NCBI GenBank assembly: GCA_038227875.1
Contig: JBBRPR010000016.1
Location: forward strand, 32,001-96,000
From: Planctomycetota bacterium
GTDB taxonomy: Bacteria > Planctomycetota > SZUA-567 > H5-PLA8
Length of the DNA: 64,000 nucleotides
Direction: 5' to 3'
The position numbers and the translations under genes are program-made. Below the pieces are notes generated by a model. That model had not been told where the DNA came from. It did not search any database and saw only the letters and a list, made by a program, of their open reading frames with translations. This document shows positions 2,607-45,597 of this stretch, in pieces; positions within the stretch are counted from its first letter, which is position 1; each line of letters opens with the position of its first letter.

Positions 2607-4337
2607 TTGAAAAAAGTTCTCGTAACCAGCGCGCTACCTTATGCCAATGGGCGCGTCCACATCGGGCATCTCGCGGGCGCTTATCTTCCATCTGATATTT
2701 ACGTGAGGTGGCTGCGGCTGAAGGGCTGCGACGTCCGCTACATTTGCGGCTCTGACGAACACGGCGTCCCGATCACGCTCACGGCGCTGAAACGCAAAAC
2801 CACGCCGCAACTGGTGGTTGACGAATTCCACGCCGCCAACGGCGCAGCCTTCGAAGCAGCAGATGTGAAGTTCGATATCTGGGGGCGCACATCCAGCGCC
2901 GAACATCATGCGCTGACCCAGCAATTTTTCACGCGGCTCTACAACAAGGGCTACATCGAGAAACGCACGACGCAGCAGTTGTACTCCGAAAAGTCGAAGA
3001 TGTTCCTGCCCGATCGTTACGTTGAAGGAGAATGCCCCGTCTGCCACGACGCCAATGCGCGCGGCGATCAGTGCGATAAATGCGGGAGCACGTACGAAGT
3101 CACGGAGTTGATCAAGCCGCGAGTTGCGATCGAAGGCGACGGCTCGACGCCGGTGCTGAAGTCGACGGCGCATTGGTTTTTGAAGCTCGACGCGTTCTCC
3201 GACCGCTTGAAACAGTGGGTGGCGACGCACGCCGACGGCACGCCGCAGACGTGGCGCGTCAATGCGCAACGCGAAGCGAATTCGTGGCTGAAGCGCGGCC
3301 TGCAGCCGCGCGCGATCACCCGCGATACAAGCTGGGGCGTGGAAATCCCGTTGCCCGAAGATGCTGACGCTCCAGGCAAACGACTGTACGTCTGGTTCGA
3401 CGCGCCGATCGGGTACGTCACGTTTACGCAACAGTTATTCGCGAAGGAAGGAACGCCGGAGCGTTGGAAGGAGTTCTGGCAGAATCCCGATGCGGAGATC
3501 ATCAACTTCATCGGCAAGGACAACATTCCGTTCCATGCGATCACATGGCCTGCGATGCAGATCGGCGCGAACGAAGATGTGCCGGCAGGCGAGAAGCCGT
3601 ACCAGCTCGTCACACAAGTTGTCTCCAATGAATTTTTGAATCTCGGCGAGGACAAGTTCAGCAAATCGCGCGGGAACATCATCGAGATCGGCTGGTTTGC
3701 CGAAAAGTACGGCAGTGAAGCGCTGCGTTACTACCTCACGGCCGTCGCGCCGGAGGGCAGCGACAGCACATTCACATGGGACGATTTCCTGCAGCGCTAC
3801 AACGGCGAACTCGCGGACATCCTCGGCAACTATGTTCATCGCGTGGTGACGTTCGCGGTCAACAAGCTCGGAGCGAAGGTTCCTGAGGTGAGCGATCTGG
3901 GCACTCATTCGGCGTTTGCAGCGGAGACGCAGACGGCTGTGTCGACGACGGGCGTGCTGCTGGATGGCTTTCAGTTCCGCAACGCGATCTCCACCGTGAT
4001 CGCCAGCGCGCGCGCGGGCAATGTGTACTTCGATTCCAACGCGCCGTGGAAGTCGATCAAGAGCGATCCGGCGGAATGCAACCGGCTGATCTATGTCTGT
4101 CTGTGCCGCGCGGCGGCGATCGGCTTGATGCTCCGCCCGTTCCTGCCCAAGAGCGCCGCGGCAATCCTGAAAAACTTCGGCCTCGAGAATGCATTTGCGG
4201 CCGGAAGTTCGAACCTGCGCGCTGAAGATGTGGTTAAGCCCGGCGCGATAATCAACAAGCCGGAAGTACTGTTCAAGAAGCTTGAAGCGAAAGATCTGCC
4301 GCAGGACGAAGCGGCGCCGAAAGACGTGAAGAAGTAG
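2607..4337 (+). CDS. metG: Methionine--tRNA ligase (short form)
   Basis: TSALPYANGRVHIGH (HIGH), GSDEHG, Zn knuckle CPVC..CDKC, YVWFDAPIGY, KFSKS (KMSKS-like). TTG start after GGAGG. Confidence 0.97.
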   Translation: MKKVLVTSALPYANGRVHIGHLAGAYLPSDIYVRWLRLKGCDVRYICGSDEHGVPITLTALKRKTTPQLVVDEFHAANGAAFEAADVKFDIWGRTSSAEHHALTQQFFTRLYNKGYIEKRTTQQLYSEKSKMFLPDRYVEGECPVCHDANARGDQCDKCGSTYEVTELIKPRVAIEGDGSTPVLKSTAHWFLKLDAFSDRLKQWVATHADGTPQTWRVNAQREANSWLKRGLQPRAITRDTSWGVEIPLPEDADAPGKRLYVWFDAPIGYVTFTQQLFAKEGTPERWKEFWQNPDAEIINFIGKDNIPFHAITWPAMQIGANEDVPAGEKPYQLVTQVVSNEFLNLGEDKFSKSRGNIIEIGWFAEKYGSEALRYYLTAVAPEGSDSTFTWDDFLQRYNGELADILGNYVHRVVTFAVNKLGAKVPEVSDLGTHSAFAAETQTAVSTTGVLLDGFQFRNAISTVIASARAGNVYFDSNAPWKSIKSDPAECNRLIYVCLCRAAAIGLMLRPFLPKSAAAILKNFGLENAFAAGSSNLRAEDVVKPGAIINKPEVLFKKLEAKDLPQDEAAPKDVKK

Positions 4338-40901: not shown

Positions 40902-41450
40902 TTGCCATGGATGCGGAGCCCTATGACAGAAGAGCCTATTGTCGTCGACGTTCGTCTTACACAAGCCGACTACATGCACTTCAACAAATGGCATTTTTAT
41001 AAGAGAAATCCGATCAGTAGTTTTTTGGTCGTCATGTCGTATCTCTCTATAGGTCTATTTCTCCTTGTGAATCTCTGGCCAAACCGTTGGATTCAATGCG
41101 AATTTACCCAATCCCTGTACATGCTCATTCTGCCATTCTTCTATTTGGTGTTCATTCCGTATTCGGTCGTCGCCGGATACAAAAAAATGGCAAAGTCCGA
41201 TCCCTCCCGTCTGGAAATGCATTACGAGTTTCTACCCGATTGTATTCGAGTAACGTTGCCCGCGTCCAAAGTTGAAGAGACTTGGGCAAATTATCAGAAT
41301 GTGGTCGAAACTCCGTCGCACTATTTTCTTTACCTAAGTTCGGTGCAGGCTCGCATTATCCCGAAGCGCGACCTGTCAGAGGACAAACTCGCCACTTTCC
41401 GGGAATTCATTGACCGCAACATCGACAAGACGAAACTCGTTCGCGGCTGA
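40902..41450 (+). CDS. YcxB-like membrane protein
   Basis: Two TMs, then W..Y..VVET...F.LY......IIPKRD; lower GC. Confidence 0.8.
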   Translation: MPWMRSPMTEEPIVVDVRLTQADYMHFNKWHFYKRNPISSFLVVMSYLSIGLFLLVNLWPNRWIQCEFTQSLYMLILPFFYLVFIPYSVVAGYKKMAKSDPSRLEMHYEFLPDCIRVTLPASKVEETWANYQNVVETPSHYFLYLSSVQARIIPKRDLSEDKLATFREFIDRNIDKTKLVRG

Positions 41451-41509
41451 ACACAGCCGCTTTAATGCGGCAGCAACTGGTCGAAGTGCCTCACGTTGTG
41501 CGCGAAATC

Positions 41510-41531
41510 GTGGTCGCAAATTTGCGACCAC
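41510..41531. other. Perfect 22-bp palindrome
   Basis: GTGGTCGCAAATTTGCGACCAC equals its own reverse complement. Confidence 0.8.
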
Positions 41532-41603
41532 CCAAAACCAACGACCTCGCAAACCAAATATGGACTGATTCCGGCAAAGGTGTGAGCGCGGCTTGCGAAA
41601 TTC

Positions 41604-41747
41604 TCATGCCGCGCGCGCAGCCACAACCGGGCGCAGGCGTTTCTTCTCGACTCCGCAGCGCTGGCAAACTGAGGTATGGCTCGCGTCGGCGTGCTTCGTG
41701 GTCGTTTTGCAAGGGGCGCAGTAGTGGACGGTCGTTTGTGCTTTCAT
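41604..41747 (-). CDS. 47-aa zinc-ribbon protein B (MKAQTTVHYCAPCKTTTKHADASHTSVCQRCGVEKKRLRPVVAARAA)
   Basis: CxxC-x5-H-x8-CxxC; purine-rich RBS (AAAGGGAAG); paralog of 41983-42159. Confidence 0.8.
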   Translation of the reverse strand: MKAQTTVHYCAPCKTTTKHADASHTSVCQRCGVEKKRLRPVVAARAA

Positions 41748-41787
41748 CGGTCTTCCCTTTCTCTCGTGGGTGTAGCGTCCTGGGTTG

Positions 41788-41828
41788 AAAAAAGAAAAGG
41801 GCCGGAGGTTTCTGGCCTCCGGCCCTTT
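41788..41828 (-). terminator. Attenuator terminator B
   Basis: Perfect 13-bp stem AAAGGGCCGGAGG/CCTCCGGCCCTTT followed by TCTTTTTT on the minus strand. Confidence 0.85.
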
Positions 41829-41857
41829 CACGCTTCTGAAAATTTCAGTTTAGCGGG

Positions 41858-41959
41858 TCAGGTCGAAGGCCTTTCAAACGAAAGATGAACGCAGCAGCGA
41901 ATGGCGGCTACGCGCTTCGAACACATGGACCAGCTAAACAGACCTGACGTCAGATTCAT
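41858..41959 (-). CDS. Leader peptide B (MNLTSGLFSWSMCSKRVAAIRCCVHLSFERPST)
   Basis: 33 aa, 3 Cys; the last codons (GCCTTCGACCT) are complementary to the 5' arm of terminator B. Confidence 0.7.
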   Translation of the reverse strand: MNLTSGLFSWSMCSKRVAAIRCCVHLSFERPST

Positions 41960-41982
41960 CGTTGCACTCGGATTCCTTAAAC

Positions 41983-42159
41983 TCAATTCCAACGGGCGTC
42001 TTCGCTGTGTTCCTGGCTCGGGCTGGACTTCGCTACGACGCGACTGAGGTTCTTGATCGCTCCGCAGCGCAGGCACACAGAAGTCGTTTCCGACTCCGTG
42101 TGCTTGGTCGTTGCTTTACAGAGACTGCAGTAGTGAAGGCTGGTCTGTCTTCGTTTCAT
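41983..42159 (-). CDS. 58-aa zinc-ribbon protein A (MKRRQTSLHYCSLCKATTKHTESETTSVCLRCGAIKNLSRVV...)
   Basis: CxxC-x5-H-x8-CxxC; 19 of 32 core residues identical to protein B. Confidence 0.8.
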   Translation of the reverse strand: MKRRQTSLHYCSLCKATTKHTESETTSVCLRCGAIKNLSRVVAKSSPSQEHSEDARWN

Positions 42160-42176
42160 GCTCAATCCCGATGGGT

Positions 42177-42216
42177 AAAACAAAAAGGGCCGGAGGTTTT
42201 TAAACCTTCGGCCCTT
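42177..42216 (-). terminator. Attenuator terminator A
   Basis: AAGGGCCGAAGG-TTTAAAAA-CCTCCGGCCCTT followed by TTTGTTTT on the minus strand. Confidence 0.82.
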
Positions 42217-42239
42217 GCACTTACGGGGTTGCTGGCAAG

Positions 42240-42347
42240 TCAGGCCGAAGATCTCTGAGTTTTCAAGTGTGCAAGACCGACAACGATCTTACGACGCATA
42301 CATCCGCAGGCGCACCAGCTCTGTGTAAGGCGACGAACCGAAGACAT
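42240..42347 (-). CDS. Leader peptide A (MSSVRRLTQSWCACGCMRRKIVVGLAHLKTQRSSA)
   Basis: GGAG RBS 6 nt before the ATG; 35 aa with CxCxC; the last codons TCTTCGGCCT pair with the 5' arm of terminator A. Confidence 0.75.
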   Translation of the reverse strand: MSSVRRLTQSWCACGCMRRKIVVGLAHLKTQRSSA

Positions 42348-42385
42348 GGGGCGCTCCAGAACTTCCACAGACAGTTGCACCTATC

Positions 42386-42415
42386 TAATTAACCCCTTTT
42401 AAGGGCTGCTGTCAA
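42386..42415 (-). promoter_or_regulatory. Putative promoter of the tandem cassette
   Basis: TTGACA, then an AT-rich imperfect -10 (TTAATT/TAATTA) at 17-18 bp; the spacer holds a near-palindrome CCCTTAAAAGGG. Confidence 0.5.
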
Positions 42416-42459: not shown

Positions 42460-45400
42460 TTATTTTTTGACGTCCGACACCGCCCCGTATTCGGTCTCAT
42501 CTTTCATCAGGTCCCCGCCGCCGCCGATGCCTGTTTCCACGTCGCGGACGGTCAAGTGGTAGAGACCCGCCGGTTCGTTGAGACCCAGCACAATCTGGAA
42601 TTCCTGCTGTCCTTCCGCAGCGACGAACGTCTGCGTGTACGCGGGCAGGAGCACCCCGGCGTCGTTGGTCAGCTCGGCGTGAAATAAATGCGTGCCGGGT
42701 GTGATTCCCAGCGCGGCGCTCAGCGTCGCCGTGACTTTGAAACTGCCGCGCGGGTCGATGCGGCGGAGCTTCACATTGAGGTGCTCGGCCTTGTACGGTA
42801 GCGCGGAGAGCAGTGTCGGCCGCAGCGCATCGAGCCGCGCCTTCACCGCCGCGCCGGCGCCGAGGAACTGGCCGGTCCGCATGTCGTACCAGTAACGCGT
42901 GACTTTGTCGGTCGTGCCGACCCAGACGGTCTGATCGTTGATGGCACTGCCGAAACGGCGCTGGATGCCAAAGAGCTCGTGGTCCGCGCCAAAATGGAAG
43001 CGAGCCTGATGCAGACCGCGGATCGGGACGCTCTCTTCCGACCACACTTTTAGCGGACTGCCGGAGCAGGCTTCGCCGAGCAGATCGCCGAGGACCAGGC
43101 GCAACGCTTCACCGCCGGTGGGTTTGCCGAATTGCTTTTCGTAGTCGGCGCGAGAAACGTCAAAGTAAGTGAACAGCGCCGCATCGGGAGCTTCACGCAG
43201 CGCGCCGTAATCCTGCAGCATCAGATTCAGGTAAACGAAGTGGCCCGCCCTGTTGGCTTTGGTCAGGAAGGCCGGCGCGCCCGACAGCGTCCCAGCTCCC
43301 ACGGCCGAACCCCGCGCCGCGACGCCGGGTTCCATTGCCCGCAACTCGGGCGACGAGGGACCGACGGGCTTGCGCGTCGCAGCGTCAATCAAGGTCACGC
43401 GCGCGGTGCTGGCGTCGGAGTTGGCATCATTGATGGTCAATTCTTTTCGCACGATTCCAAACTCGGCGTCGAGCGCTCCGGCGCACAGACTCTCCGCTGA
43501 GAATGTCGGGCGGCGCTTGCCGCTGCCGTCGAACAGTCCGCAGGCGCCGTCGGCGACGACCAACCCGCCGGCGCGGGCGAAAGCGCGGATCGCGACGGTT
43601 TCTTCATCGCTGAGCGAGACGACTTTGGGCAGGATCAGCACTTTCGTGTGGGAACTGGCCAGCACGCCGCTGTGCAGTTGCTGCGCGTTCAGATAAAGGG
43701 GCGAATAGCCGAGGTCTTCCAGCAGCATCGACCAGCCGCGCAAAGCGGCGAAACCCGTGTTGCTGGCCGCGTCGCGATCCATCCAATCTTGAGCGCTGGC
43801 GCGCTGGCAGTCGAGCAGCCAGTTCACCTGCAGTGAGCGCGGAGAATAGTAGAGCGCGACGGCATCGCGGACGGGCGTGGCGGCTTGGCGCAACTGCGTG
43901 ATGCCGCTGCTGAGCGCGCGGAAATCGGCGGCGAGCGCCTTGGTCGCGGGAAGCGTCTCTTGCTTGTCGTCGACGAGTGCGCGGGCATCGGCAATGCAGC
44001 CGTTGTCGCCGCGCAGCCAGCGGTCCCAGAGCTGATGAACATCCGCCGGATGGTGGCCGCCCAGCGCCGAGAGCCAGTGCATCGACGGCGCAAAGTTGCG
44101 GAGCAATTCGCGGCTGTACGCGTCGTCGTGTTCTTCAGCCCAATCGAGCACCTTGCTCAGCTGTGCGGCGTCCCAACCATTAAAGGGGGAGGGCGCAGCC
44201 AGTCCCGTTAGGCCGGCGCGGACTTCGTAGGGCGAATTGGCGCCGTGCTGCAGTTGCGCTTTGAATTCCCGCAGCATGCGCGTGAAGGCAAAATCATTAA
44301 ACGAGCGGAAGTCGCTCCACGCGGCGAAATTATCGTTGGCATCGTTGACCAGCACCGGCCGCGCACTGACGGGTTCGGGCACCAGGCTGAAACTGGTCTT
44401 CGGCTTGTCGGTCAGCAGCACTTGATCAGTGGTCGGCGGATGGACCTGATCCCACTTGGCAAAGTTCGAGCCCCATTCGCGGTTGAGCGCCGGGAGCGTG
44501 TGGTAGCGCCGCTGCAGCCACGCGCGGAAAACGTCGAGCGTGCCCGGCGCCATGCTGCCGTCGAAGGGTGCGTTACGGTTGGGTGACAGCGACAAGGCAT
44601 CGCCCAGCGACCAGCCCAGCGGCTGAAAGCCGCGCTTGGCCGTCAGGCCCGCGTCGATGTGTTCGGACATCTGCGCCACGGCGGCGTCATCAAACAACGA
44701 GAGCCCGCGCTGCAGCGCCGCGGCATCGCGCGATTTGCGGTACTGAAGGTAGGTCTGCTCCAGCGACTTTCCGGCCTTGAGCAGATTCTCGTCCGGCGCG
44801 ATCAGTTCACTGAAAAACGGCAGCGCCTGGCGCGTGTAGGTCGTCGGCGCATCGCTGGAGTCGCTCGCGCCGCCGGAGATGCCCAGCTCGCGGAGCTTCT
44901 GCCAGGCCTTGGGCGTGAGGAATTCGCCGCCGCGCAACGCGACGACGTACTCGTCCCACGGCTGCGGCGCATGGACCTGGAAACGGGTCTGCGCCACGAT
45001 GGCGGCGGGAATCGGCGCTTCGGTATCGTTCTGGCGCGGCGTGATGCGCACGACCACGAGGCGATGCAGCTGCCCGACGCAATGGTCCGGCATGGTGATG
45101 CTGAAGGCGATCGGTTCGCCGGGAGTTGCTTTGAAGGCGTCGACATTGTATTCGCCCATCACGCGCTGCGCGCCGTCGACCCAGAGCAGCTTCAAGCGCT
45201 CGGCGGGGGTCGTCGTGGCGAGCGTGCCTTCCAGCGGCGACTTGGCGTCGATCTCCAGCCGCGTCAGGTGCAGGGTGTAGGTCGCGTCTTCTTTTTTCGA
45301 CGTGACTTCGACGCGTTCGGGATGGATCGGAAGTTCGGAGCGGTCGACAAATTCAGCGCCGGAAGATGAAGATGATGTCAGCGCGGGCGCGGTGTAGTCA

Positions 45401-45597
45401 ACGTCGAGCGGCTTCTCTTCGGCCATCTTGCGCAGCGAGGCCACGTCGCTCTGCCCGACATGCGCCGCATGATCGCGTGACGACGCGTGGTCGTGCGACG
45501 TGTTCGTCGCGCAACCGGCGCAGAGCGTCAGCGCGGCCACGGCCAAAACACGGCGGCGGCTCCGGCGAGCAAAAAGTGGCTTGGGGCTAATTGGCAT
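42460..45597 (-). CDS. GH42-like glycoside hydrolase with trimerisation domain; putative Tat lipoprotein
   Basis: FRAWLQRRY.TL.ALNREWG, WSDFR.F, VALYYS, KVLILP...LS; N-terminal RR plus LCAGC lipobox-like. Confidence 0.75.
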   Translation of the reverse strand: MPISPKPLFARRSRRRVLAVAALTLCAGCATNTSHDHASSRDHAAHVGQSDVASLRKMAEEKPLDVDYTAPALTSSSSSGAEFVDRSELPIHPERVEVTSKKEDATYTLHLTRLEIDAKSPLEGTLATTTPAERLKLLWVDGAQRVMGEYNVDAFKATPGEPIAFSITMPDHCVGQLHRLVVVRITPRQNDTEAPIPAAIVAQTRFQVHAPQPWDEYVVALRGGEFLTPKAWQKLRELGISGGASDSSDAPTTYTRQALPFFSELIAPDENLLKAGKSLEQTYLQYRKSRDAAALQRGLSLFDDAAVAQMSEHIDAGLTAKRGFQPLGWSLGDALSLSPNRNAPFDGSMAPGTLDVFRAWLQRRYHTLPALNREWGSNFAKWDQVHPPTTDQVLLTDKPKTSFSLVPEPVSARPVLVNDANDNFAAWSDFRSFNDFAFTRMLREFKAQLQHGANSPYEVRAGLTGLAAPSPFNGWDAAQLSKVLDWAEEHDDAYSRELLRNFAPSMHWLSALGGHHPADVHQLWDRWLRGDNGCIADARALVDDKQETLPATKALAADFRALSSGITQLRQAATPVRDAVALYYSPRSLQVNWLLDCQRASAQDWMDRDAASNTGFAALRGWSMLLEDLGYSPLYLNAQQLHSGVLASSHTKVLILPKVVSLSDEETVAIRAFARAGGLVVADGACGLFDGSGKRRPTFSAESLCAGALDAEFGIVRKELTINDANSDASTARVTLIDAATRKPVGPSSPELRAMEPGVAARGSAVGAGTLSGAPAFLTKANRAGHFVYLNLMLQDYGALREAPDAALFTYFDVSRADYEKQFGKPTGGEALRLVLGDLLGEACSGSPLKVWSEESVPIRGLHQARFHFGADHELFGIQRRFGSAINDQTVWVGTTDKVTRYWYDMRTGQFLGAGAAVKARLDALRPTLLSALPYKAEHLNVKLRRIDPRGSFKVTATLSAALGITPGTHLFHAELTNDAGVLLPAYTQTFVAAEGQQEFQIVLGLNEPAGLYHLTVRDVETGIGGGGDLMKDETEYGAVSDVKK

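Follow-up and report, generated by a model that had tools for sequence, protein, structure and literature searches.

In the enterobacterial trp, his, leu, thr, phe, and ilv attenuators, a ribosome at the leader stop codon masks the antiterminator strand. The two units treated here, A and B, lie in tandem on the minus strand of a 64-kb stretch of Planctomycetota DNA (contig JBBRPR010000016.1), which as a whole is called the window, and their anatomy resembles that of such leaders. Each unit is a cassette made of a leader open reading frame (ORF), an intrinsic terminator, and a gene for a miniprotein with a four-cysteine (Cys4) zinc ribbon, ZnA in unit A and ZnB in unit B. We propose that each is probably a ribosome-dependent leader-peptide transcription attenuator, built of the RNA elements R2, R3, and R4, that reports a general slowing of translation. 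We infer this mechanism by reading the anatomy of the cassettes in the light of what is established on leader-peptide attenuation. With the enterobacterial leaders the cassettes share a promoter, a short leader, and an antiterminator that overlaps the 5′ arm of the terminator. Unlike them, they have no run of regulatory codons, no detectable 1:2 (anti-antiterminator) pairing, and no biosynthetic operon downstream, and in contrast to the trp type, untranslated cassette leaders should read through rather than terminate. None of the Rfam leader families matched the cassette.

Judged by analogy, the closest described systems are the upstream ORF (uORF) attenuator of whiB7 and the control of Bacillus subtilis anti-TRAP, and whiB7 is the nearest in logic. 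In mycobacteria and other Actinobacteria, according to PMC10274678, efficient translation of the whiB7 uORF leads to a rho-independent terminator, while stalled or inefficient translation leads to an antiterminator and to read-through. There, as here, the only output is a promoter-distal gene that encodes a small four-cysteine protein, and the uORF is fairly long, varies among species, and lacks a single codon run, general translation stress being what is sensed (PMC10274678). The cassettes differ in their Planctomycetota host, in the lack of any sequence relation, and in that serial duplication is possible. Moreover, their output is a plain zinc ribbon of 47–70 amino acids that belongs to no Pfam or NCBIfam family, whereas whiB7 encodes a WhiB-like Fe-S transcription factor.

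The control of anti-TRAP has two layers in series, the second of them supplied by a leader peptide that contains Trp codons. The protein itself (rtpA/yczA) is very small, binds zinc, and is produced through transcription antitermination by a signal of tRNA charging and translation (PMC11255114). Unlike the cassettes, anti-TRAP relies on a T-box reading uncharged tRNA-Trp as its sensor; an Rfam search found no T-box at the locus in the window. Searches of the zinc ribbons by profile against PDB and by fold gave nothing significant that would relate them to anti-TRAP. In the “Cys ribulon”, the polycysteine leaderless short ORFs of mycobacteria, Cys codons make stalling report the supply of cysteine (bioRxiv 10.1101/834739). 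The cassettes depart from that system as well: there, a ribosome-binding site is unmasked, translation is controlled, and the genes are those of cysteine metabolism; in the cassettes, a terminator does the switching, the leaders show no conservation of Cys, and no gene of Cys metabolism is linked. PMC4833913, on leader genes and reinitiation, has no bearing on the cassette. No leader-peptide attenuator described for Planctomycetota was found in the literature searched or in Rfam, and the same literature yielded no account of the cassette. The mechanism is a textbook one, and what is new is the cassette and its outputs; the statement in the original prediction, made from the window alone, that no description of such a module was known goes too far in view of whiB7, anti-TRAP, and the Cys-responsive leaders of mycobacteria.

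Unit A opens with a putative promoter, composed of the −35-like hexamer TTGACA (42410..42415) and, after a 17-nt spacer, the candidate −10 element TTAATT (42387..42392), both read from the sequence of the minus strand, on which all the elements of the two units lie. Leader ORF A (42240..42347) has 35 codons followed by TGA, encodes MSSVRRLTQSWCACGCMRRKIVVGLAHLKTQRSSA, and carries GGAG 6 nt 5′ of its ATG. Terminator A (42177..42216) consists of a hairpin at 42185–42216, with one A-C mismatch, and a T-tract, and matches the covariance model described below with 83.4 bits. ZnA (41983..42159), supported by its ORF and an AF2 model, is a Cys4 zinc-ribbon protein of 58 amino acids with a C-terminal WN. 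In all 12 cassettes introduced below, R2 comprises about 10 final nucleotides of the leader ORF together with the U of the stop codon, and it is complementary to the 5′ arm of the terminator, which is R3, GGGCCGGAGG. R4 is the 3′ arm, after which the U-tract follows. In unit A, R2 (42242..42251) takes in the 9 final ORF nucleotides and the stop-codon U, and 42251–42242 (UCUUCGGCCU) pairs with 42214–42205 (GGGCCGAAGG) over 10 bp, including 2 G-U.

Unit B follows closely, with the ATG of its leader 24 nt past the ZnA stop. Leader ORF B (41858..41959) has 33 codons plus TGA and encodes MNLTSGLFSWSMCSKRVAAIRCCVHLSFERPST; its R2 (41860..41870, read as 41870–41860) pairs with 41825–41815 over 11 positions, the single mismatch being A-C. 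In both units, the pairing ends with the U of the leader stop codon. Terminator B (41785..41829; covariance-model match 85.8 bits) is formed by a hairpin at 41795–41829 with a 14-bp stem and by a T-tract. ZnB (41604..41747), of 47 amino acids, is a Cys4 paralogue with 55% identity to ZnA across 38 residues and without the WN tail. Most of the DNA similarity between units A and B lies in the motif CCTTCG(G/A)CCTGA and in the terminator. Thus, the minus-strand order of promoter, leader A, terminator A, ZnA, leader B, terminator B, and ZnB that had been claimed is present in full at its coordinates, and the two claimed leader/terminator pairings are exact as quoted. Inspection of the sequence showed no promoter belonging to unit B, which places ZnB in series behind two terminators and agrees with the dependence on terminator A that had been claimed for it. 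The next gene past ZnB, YcxB-like (40902–41450, plus strand), is convergent, so nothing further can be co-transcribed with unit B; the claim that no enzyme or transporter lies downstream is therefore borne out in the window.

In total, we found 12 homologous cassettes: besides the two in the window, six come from other Planctomycetota genomes of its family, and four from contigs of metagenomes. Eight are of the ZnA type, namely A, B, L007 (genome G008), L009 (G001), and the metagenome loci L029, L030, L031, and L033; among genomic homologues that keep the layout intact, L007 and L009 are the closest. A covariance model (R1) built on the 3′ halves of these eight gave four further strong matches, L065, L066, L067, and L068 (in G012, G006, G014, and G004, respectively; E 8e-13 to 7e-7). 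These second-type cassettes have the same type of promoter, leader ORF, R2 motif, and terminator, and their 3′ gene encodes another Cys4 zinc ribbon. The lower-scoring matches to the model (L077, L086, L087, L069, and L070) are ordinary gene-end terminators. Every one of the 12 has a leader ORF, then a terminator, and then a gene for a Cys4 zinc ribbon of 47–70 amino acids. TTGAC occurs 62–93 nt 5′ of the leader ATG in 11 cassettes, unit B being the exception, and in the relatives a −10-like sequence stands at equal spacing (ATTAAT, ATTTAG, ATTAAG, or TTAGTT). When tandem cassettes were sought with the covariance model in 17 genomes of the family, an adjacent pair was found only in the window’s own genome (G000). 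By this comparison, the tandem arrangement is a lineage-specific duplication and no general property of the system.

The leader ORF defines this class of attenuators, and sequence comparison finds it maintained in the relatives. An ATG ORF of 25–44 codons ending at a homologous stop (11 TGA, 1 TAA) is present in 12 of 12 cassettes. Shuffled leaders yield an equivalent ORF in just 5–12% of trials each, for a joint probability of about 1e-12 across 11 cassettes (L066 dropped), a figure that assumes independence and overstates the significance because the cassettes are related. The clear maintenance of these ORFs could also be expected if the leaders were independent small-protein genes with somewhat leaky terminators. 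In that case, the Zn genes would be expressed from promoters that went unrecognised or through read-through at a constitutive level, and the complementarity of R2 and R3 would have no regulatory role. What the ORFs encode argues against such ordinary gene ends. The peptides vary greatly in length and sequence while the frame to the common stop stays open, and no alignment across cassettes is possible for the 5′ parts of the leaders. Likeness is confined to the last 3–4 residues (..PPA, PPLA, PPV, PSA, PST, SSA), with a Pro-Pro motif just ahead of the stop in 9 of the 12. Even between the leaders of L065 and L066, 4 codon differences are non-synonymous and 5 are synonymous; together with the divergence of the peptides, these substitutions fit a regulatory leader and not a functional protein, as far as sequences can tell. 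Nor would a plain small-protein gene account for the stop codon, which falls at the same antiterminator base in all 12 cassettes.

Between the leader ORF and the Zn gene, all 12 cassettes have a GC-rich hairpin with a T-tract. Pairing holds in 94.6% of the cells of the terminator alignment, with a covariation score above that of 500 of 500 shuffles. For R2:R3, 90.8% of cells are paired in alignment A7, compared with 34–67.5% when the partner is slid by 1–3 columns. RNAalifold, applied to transcripts cut before R4, recovers the R2:R3 helix de novo (11 pairs, −17.96 kcal/mol). When the R2–R3 stretch is folded in isolation, each of the 12 cassettes has R2:R3 as its minimum free energy (MFE) structure, with energies of −18.9 to −25.1 kcal/mol and usually with a small linker hairpin. 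An anti-antiterminator was also sought, and in most cassettes the best upstream partner of R2 was no better than in shuffles. We regard as decisive, at the level of sequence, that in all 12 cassettes the R2:R3 pairing is conserved and its position with respect to the stop codon does not change; it is this conservation that gives the case its weight. The geometry of ribosome-mediated attenuation that had been claimed for the window is therefore a conserved one, with the leader ORF always there, its stop abutting the antiterminator strand, and the terminator covarying.

How might the switch operate? Transcription would begin at the strong, sigma70-like promoter. A ribosome that is prompt would reach the end of the leader and cover R2, leaving R3 to pair with R4, and transcription would terminate ahead of the Zn gene; the Pro-Pro before the stop may lengthen the stay of the ribosome on R2. 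With no ribosome, a late one, or one that has stalled over about 15 nt upstream, R2 would capture R3 once R3 has been made, and the R2:R3 hairpin, at −19 to −25 kcal/mol, would block the terminator and let the miniprotein gene be transcribed. Since no 1:2 pairing is detectable, an untranslated leader should read through as well, and such read-through without translation means that the switch would report general slowing of translation and not one amino acid. The signals sensed may accordingly be many kinds of amino-acid shortage, translation inhibitors, and poor coupling. In the tandem duplication, with unit B promoterless, ZnB would need read-through of both terminators, and two terminators in series should give ZnB a steeper response with a higher threshold.

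Several observations weigh against attenuation of this kind. The original prediction had looked to covariation and to folding of the alternative structures for a check, and both came out in part: the terminator covaries, but for R2:R3, 205–313 of 500 shuffles reach the observed values, which is not significant, because both strands are nearly invariant; and the MFE structure of the truncated transcript is R2:R3 in six of eight cassettes, unit A included, but not in unit B, which prefers another fold, nor in L031. As a genome-wide control, we took 890 terminator-like hairpins and scored the best complement of the 5′ arm within 67 nt upstream, which averaged −10.1 ± 3.2 kcal/mol. The pairing of unit A ranks 15 of 890; that of unit B ranks 242 of 890, so on its own it is not beyond chance, and its place inside the genome background would suit ordinary gene ends. 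Owing to its non-canonical −10, the TTGACA site went unflagged in a consensus promoter scan of the window, and the Shine-Dalgarno matches ahead of several leader ATGs are weak. Few lineages stand behind the 12 cassettes, L065 and L066 being near-identical and L029 and L030 close. In the genomes of the family, the cassette is absent at 20 of the 24 Zn-family loci examined, and L008, the closest genomic homologue of ZnA in G005, has a promoter and a short ORF with no convincing terminator. Lastly, the gap between terminator and gene is 77–133 nt in six of the 12 (L007, L009, L029, L030, L031, and L033), and four of these loci, L007, L009, L031, and L033, contain a conserved TTGAATCGTCATAC-like box, which may be the Zn gene’s own promoter or operator; in L009, it stands some 45 nt ahead of the Zn start. 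A separate Zn-gene promoter may thus exist in the relatives with the long gaps.

The box lies just 5′ of the Shine-Dalgarno of ZnA-type genes, in some loci with AATTTGTGAACA ahead of it, and is also seen at L011, L012, L016, and L018. The cassette-free homologues that bear it follow a gene for an ABC ATPase of the corrinoid/heme/siderophore type.

The remaining six cassettes present a different picture. The spacer from the end of the terminator element to the Zn start codon is 15 nt in unit A and 39 nt in unit B, which leaves no space for a promoter ahead of the Zn gene; from T-tract to Zn start, the range for A, B, L065, L066, L067, and L068 is 15–48 nt, and without promoter space, their Zn genes must depend on read-through. 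A promoter of the Zn gene’s own, the feature by which the original prediction would have fallen, therefore has no room in A and B and may be present in the relatives with gaps of 77–133 nt. These long gaps, the box ahead of several of the genes concerned, and the plain gene-end terminators L077, L086, L087, and L069 among the lower-scoring covariance-model matches are what the leaky gene ends considered above would lead one to expect. A start codon within 48 nt in six cassettes is not, and neither is the linkage to a zinc ribbon that the cassette keeps even when the protein belongs to a different sequence family. On balance, we consider it unlikely that the leaders are small-protein genes reached past by leaky termination.

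Could the leaders sense cysteine? The original prediction had listed Cys-tRNA shortage, beside metal/thiol status and translation stress, among the candidate signals, and the leaders of the window invite the idea, with CxCxC in leader A and C plus CC in leader B. Ribosomes stalled by shortage of Cys-tRNA at these clustered Cys codons, which lie far enough 5′ of R2 to keep it unmasked, would make the miniproteins reporters of cysteine or thiol status. It is in keeping with this that at least one Cys occurs in seven of the eight ZnA-type leaders, that L030 has CCC, and that the polycysteine leader ORFs of mycobacteria are known Cys-responsive attenuators (bioRxiv 10.1101/834739). Yet the counts per leader are 3, 3, 1, 2, 2, 4, 0, and 2 in the ZnA type and 0, 0, 1, and 0 in the second type. 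Four of the 12 (L031, L065, L066, and L068) have no Cys at all, and L007 and L067 have a single one each. With L066 dropped, the 11 remaining leaders together contain 18 Cys, where nucleotide shuffles give an expectation of 11.8 ± 3.3 (P ~0.045); in their +1 frame, there are 23 TGY codons. No residue run is common to the 12 leaders, and no cysteine-metabolism gene is linked. With Cys ranging from none to four per leader and not significantly enriched, sensing of Cys-tRNA is not supported as a conserved property by the leaders compared, and we find a cysteine-specific attenuator quite improbable, although the clustered Cys codons of the window’s lineage may add some sensitivity to cysteine.

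Other readings give the RNA itself the active part. The terminated leader, of about 190 nt, could be a small RNA, or the zinc ribbon could bind its own GGCCGGAGG leader hairpin and autoregulate as ribosomal-protein leaders do. Such a switch would suit the terminator stem, the sequence of which is unusually invariant across genera, and the proteins, which are small, basic zinc ribbons of a fold common among nucleic-acid binders, with weak, non-significant PDB matches to the ribbons of RNA polymerase and the ribosome. It would suit also the only RNA evidence, a single adapter-flanked insert of a metatranscriptome library (run X8; 42210..42342, strand not assigned), which is 100% identical to the window, spans leader A and not ZnA, and shows no transcript ends; carry-over of DNA is possible. 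The invariance of the stem is explained by R2 and R4 both having to pair with R3, and a switch of this sort leaves the maintained ORF and the fixed position of its stop without a role. It would further require two unrelated-looking protein families to have the same RNA target, and there is no match to an Rfam family. All told, an RNA or autoregulatory switch seems to us very unlikely. Natural variants were sought in DNA runs X2–X4, where the pieces were 100% identical across the part of the cassette covered.

The 5′ leader, in which the terminator and antiterminator structures exclude each other, might in addition suggest a riboswitch, with a leader aptamer that binds a ligand and controls the terminator. 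No Rfam family reached threshold: at a permissive setting, Rfam 15 gave only BjrC68 on terminator B, with 26.5 bits against a threshold of 39, and otherwise nothing at E < 0.1. Over their 5′ two thirds, the leaders neither align nor have a common structure, conservation being limited to R2, the linker hairpin, and the terminator. An aptamer was rejected on account of these non-aligning 5′ parts, and we give the idea next to no credence.

With ribosome-dependent attenuation as the preferred reading, the proteins at its end deserve attention. The AF2 model of ZnA shows a confident four-strand zinc ribbon at residues 1–42 and a disordered acidic tail, after which the terminal WN is encoded at 41983–41988. 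ZnB retains all 11 invariant columns of alignment A2, in which 14 of the 17 rows end in WN, the exceptions being ZnB, L008, and L009. The family is small, as a search of 1.84 billion proteins at E ≤ 0.001 yields only 84 cluster representatives, and narrowly distributed: in 60 related genomes searched, it is present in 13 of the 16 other genomes of the window’s family and in 0 of the 44 outside it. Pfam, NCBIfam, and PHROGs returned just sub-threshold, generic zinc-ribbon matches; Foldseek of the AF2 model against PDB gave nothing at E ≤ 0.001, the best E of the profile against PDB sequences was 0.14, and the ESM Atlas contained only unnamed hypothetical clusters. The second family (L065–L068) consists of Cys4 proteins of the form ..HCPHCSGVLRAFGDTGKWACERCQQVV.. 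and is represented in the 17 genomes of the window’s family by four strong members, each with the cassette. The spacing CxxC-x14-CxxC is common to both families; homology between them was considered and is not shown, the hhalign probability of ZnA against the second family being 6.8%.

By analogy with the described systems, the outputs are probably small regulators or binding factors of a stress response, and, to go by the sequence, the miniproteins are apparently made only when translation of the leader is slow. It is tempting to go further and to propose that tiny Cys4 zinc ribbons are a recurrent, dedicated output of bacterial sensors of translation stalling, binding the ribosome, RNA polymerase, or a regulator once translation falters, in the manner of WhiB7 and anti-TRAP, that the Planctomycetota cassette, attached to two sequence families of zinc ribbons, is an instance of a wider, unrecognised stress circuit, and that serial copies set graded thresholds, but we hold this generalization to be doubtful. 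The system is a conserved and compact putative attenuator of Planctomycetota with clear predictions for mutagenesis, the value of which lies in its outputs and its host and not in a new principle. It provides a functional handle on two orphan miniprotein families, and the natural layout of two units in series is a ready test of how stacked attenuators shape a response.

Some further features of the relatives may be mentioned. In five of them, a gene for a TetR-family regulator lies 3′ of the Zn gene (L031, ~3400–4030; L033, 3212–3817; L041, 590–1180; L043, 1781–2383; L049, 1789–2427) and is preceded by a perfect palindrome of the ACTGACCGGTCAGT type; in L031, a gene for an HlyD-type membrane-fusion (efflux) protein comes next after it. 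The cassette in the window has neither TetR nor HlyD-type neighbours. One relative, L012/L034, has a His-rich tail, HHHHHPHHQHSHGH. L010 (G012) and L013 (G006) contain a third type of zinc ribbon (DLRYCAACKSTQKH), and a hydrophobic ORF of about 32 amino acids, which in L013 encodes MKRPERDLVLLVIGVACVLAAVAGLIRLLMGA, ends a few bases before its start; the pairing at these two loci has no terminator and differs from the cassette. In L007, a tandem repeat of GGTGAGT, in 4–5 copies, is located about 10–60 nt past the terminator, within the spacer that leads to the Zn gene.

Among the lower-scoring matches to the covariance model, L077 (G004:C174:9895-10002) is a terminator between two genes, and here too the 5′ arm finds its complement in the final bases of the ORF that precedes it. 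To judge from the peptides, the flanking genes are presumably the end of the gene for ribosomal protein L20 and the start of pheS, and L077 may be an attenuator of the pheST type or a chance match.

As to the surroundings of the cassette in the window, a palindromic hairpin, GGTCGCAAATTTGCGACC, lies at ~41505–41535 on the minus strand, between the convergent ZnB and YcxB-like genes, and may be a terminator common to both. On the other side, the 5′ neighbour of unit A is a minus-strand gene for a GH42-like protein of 1045 amino acids (42460–45597), the stop of which is at 42460. A large GH42-like protein is likewise encoded directly 5′ of the cassette in the metagenome locus L031 (47–2644), and the synteny between the window and L031 reaches past the cassette.

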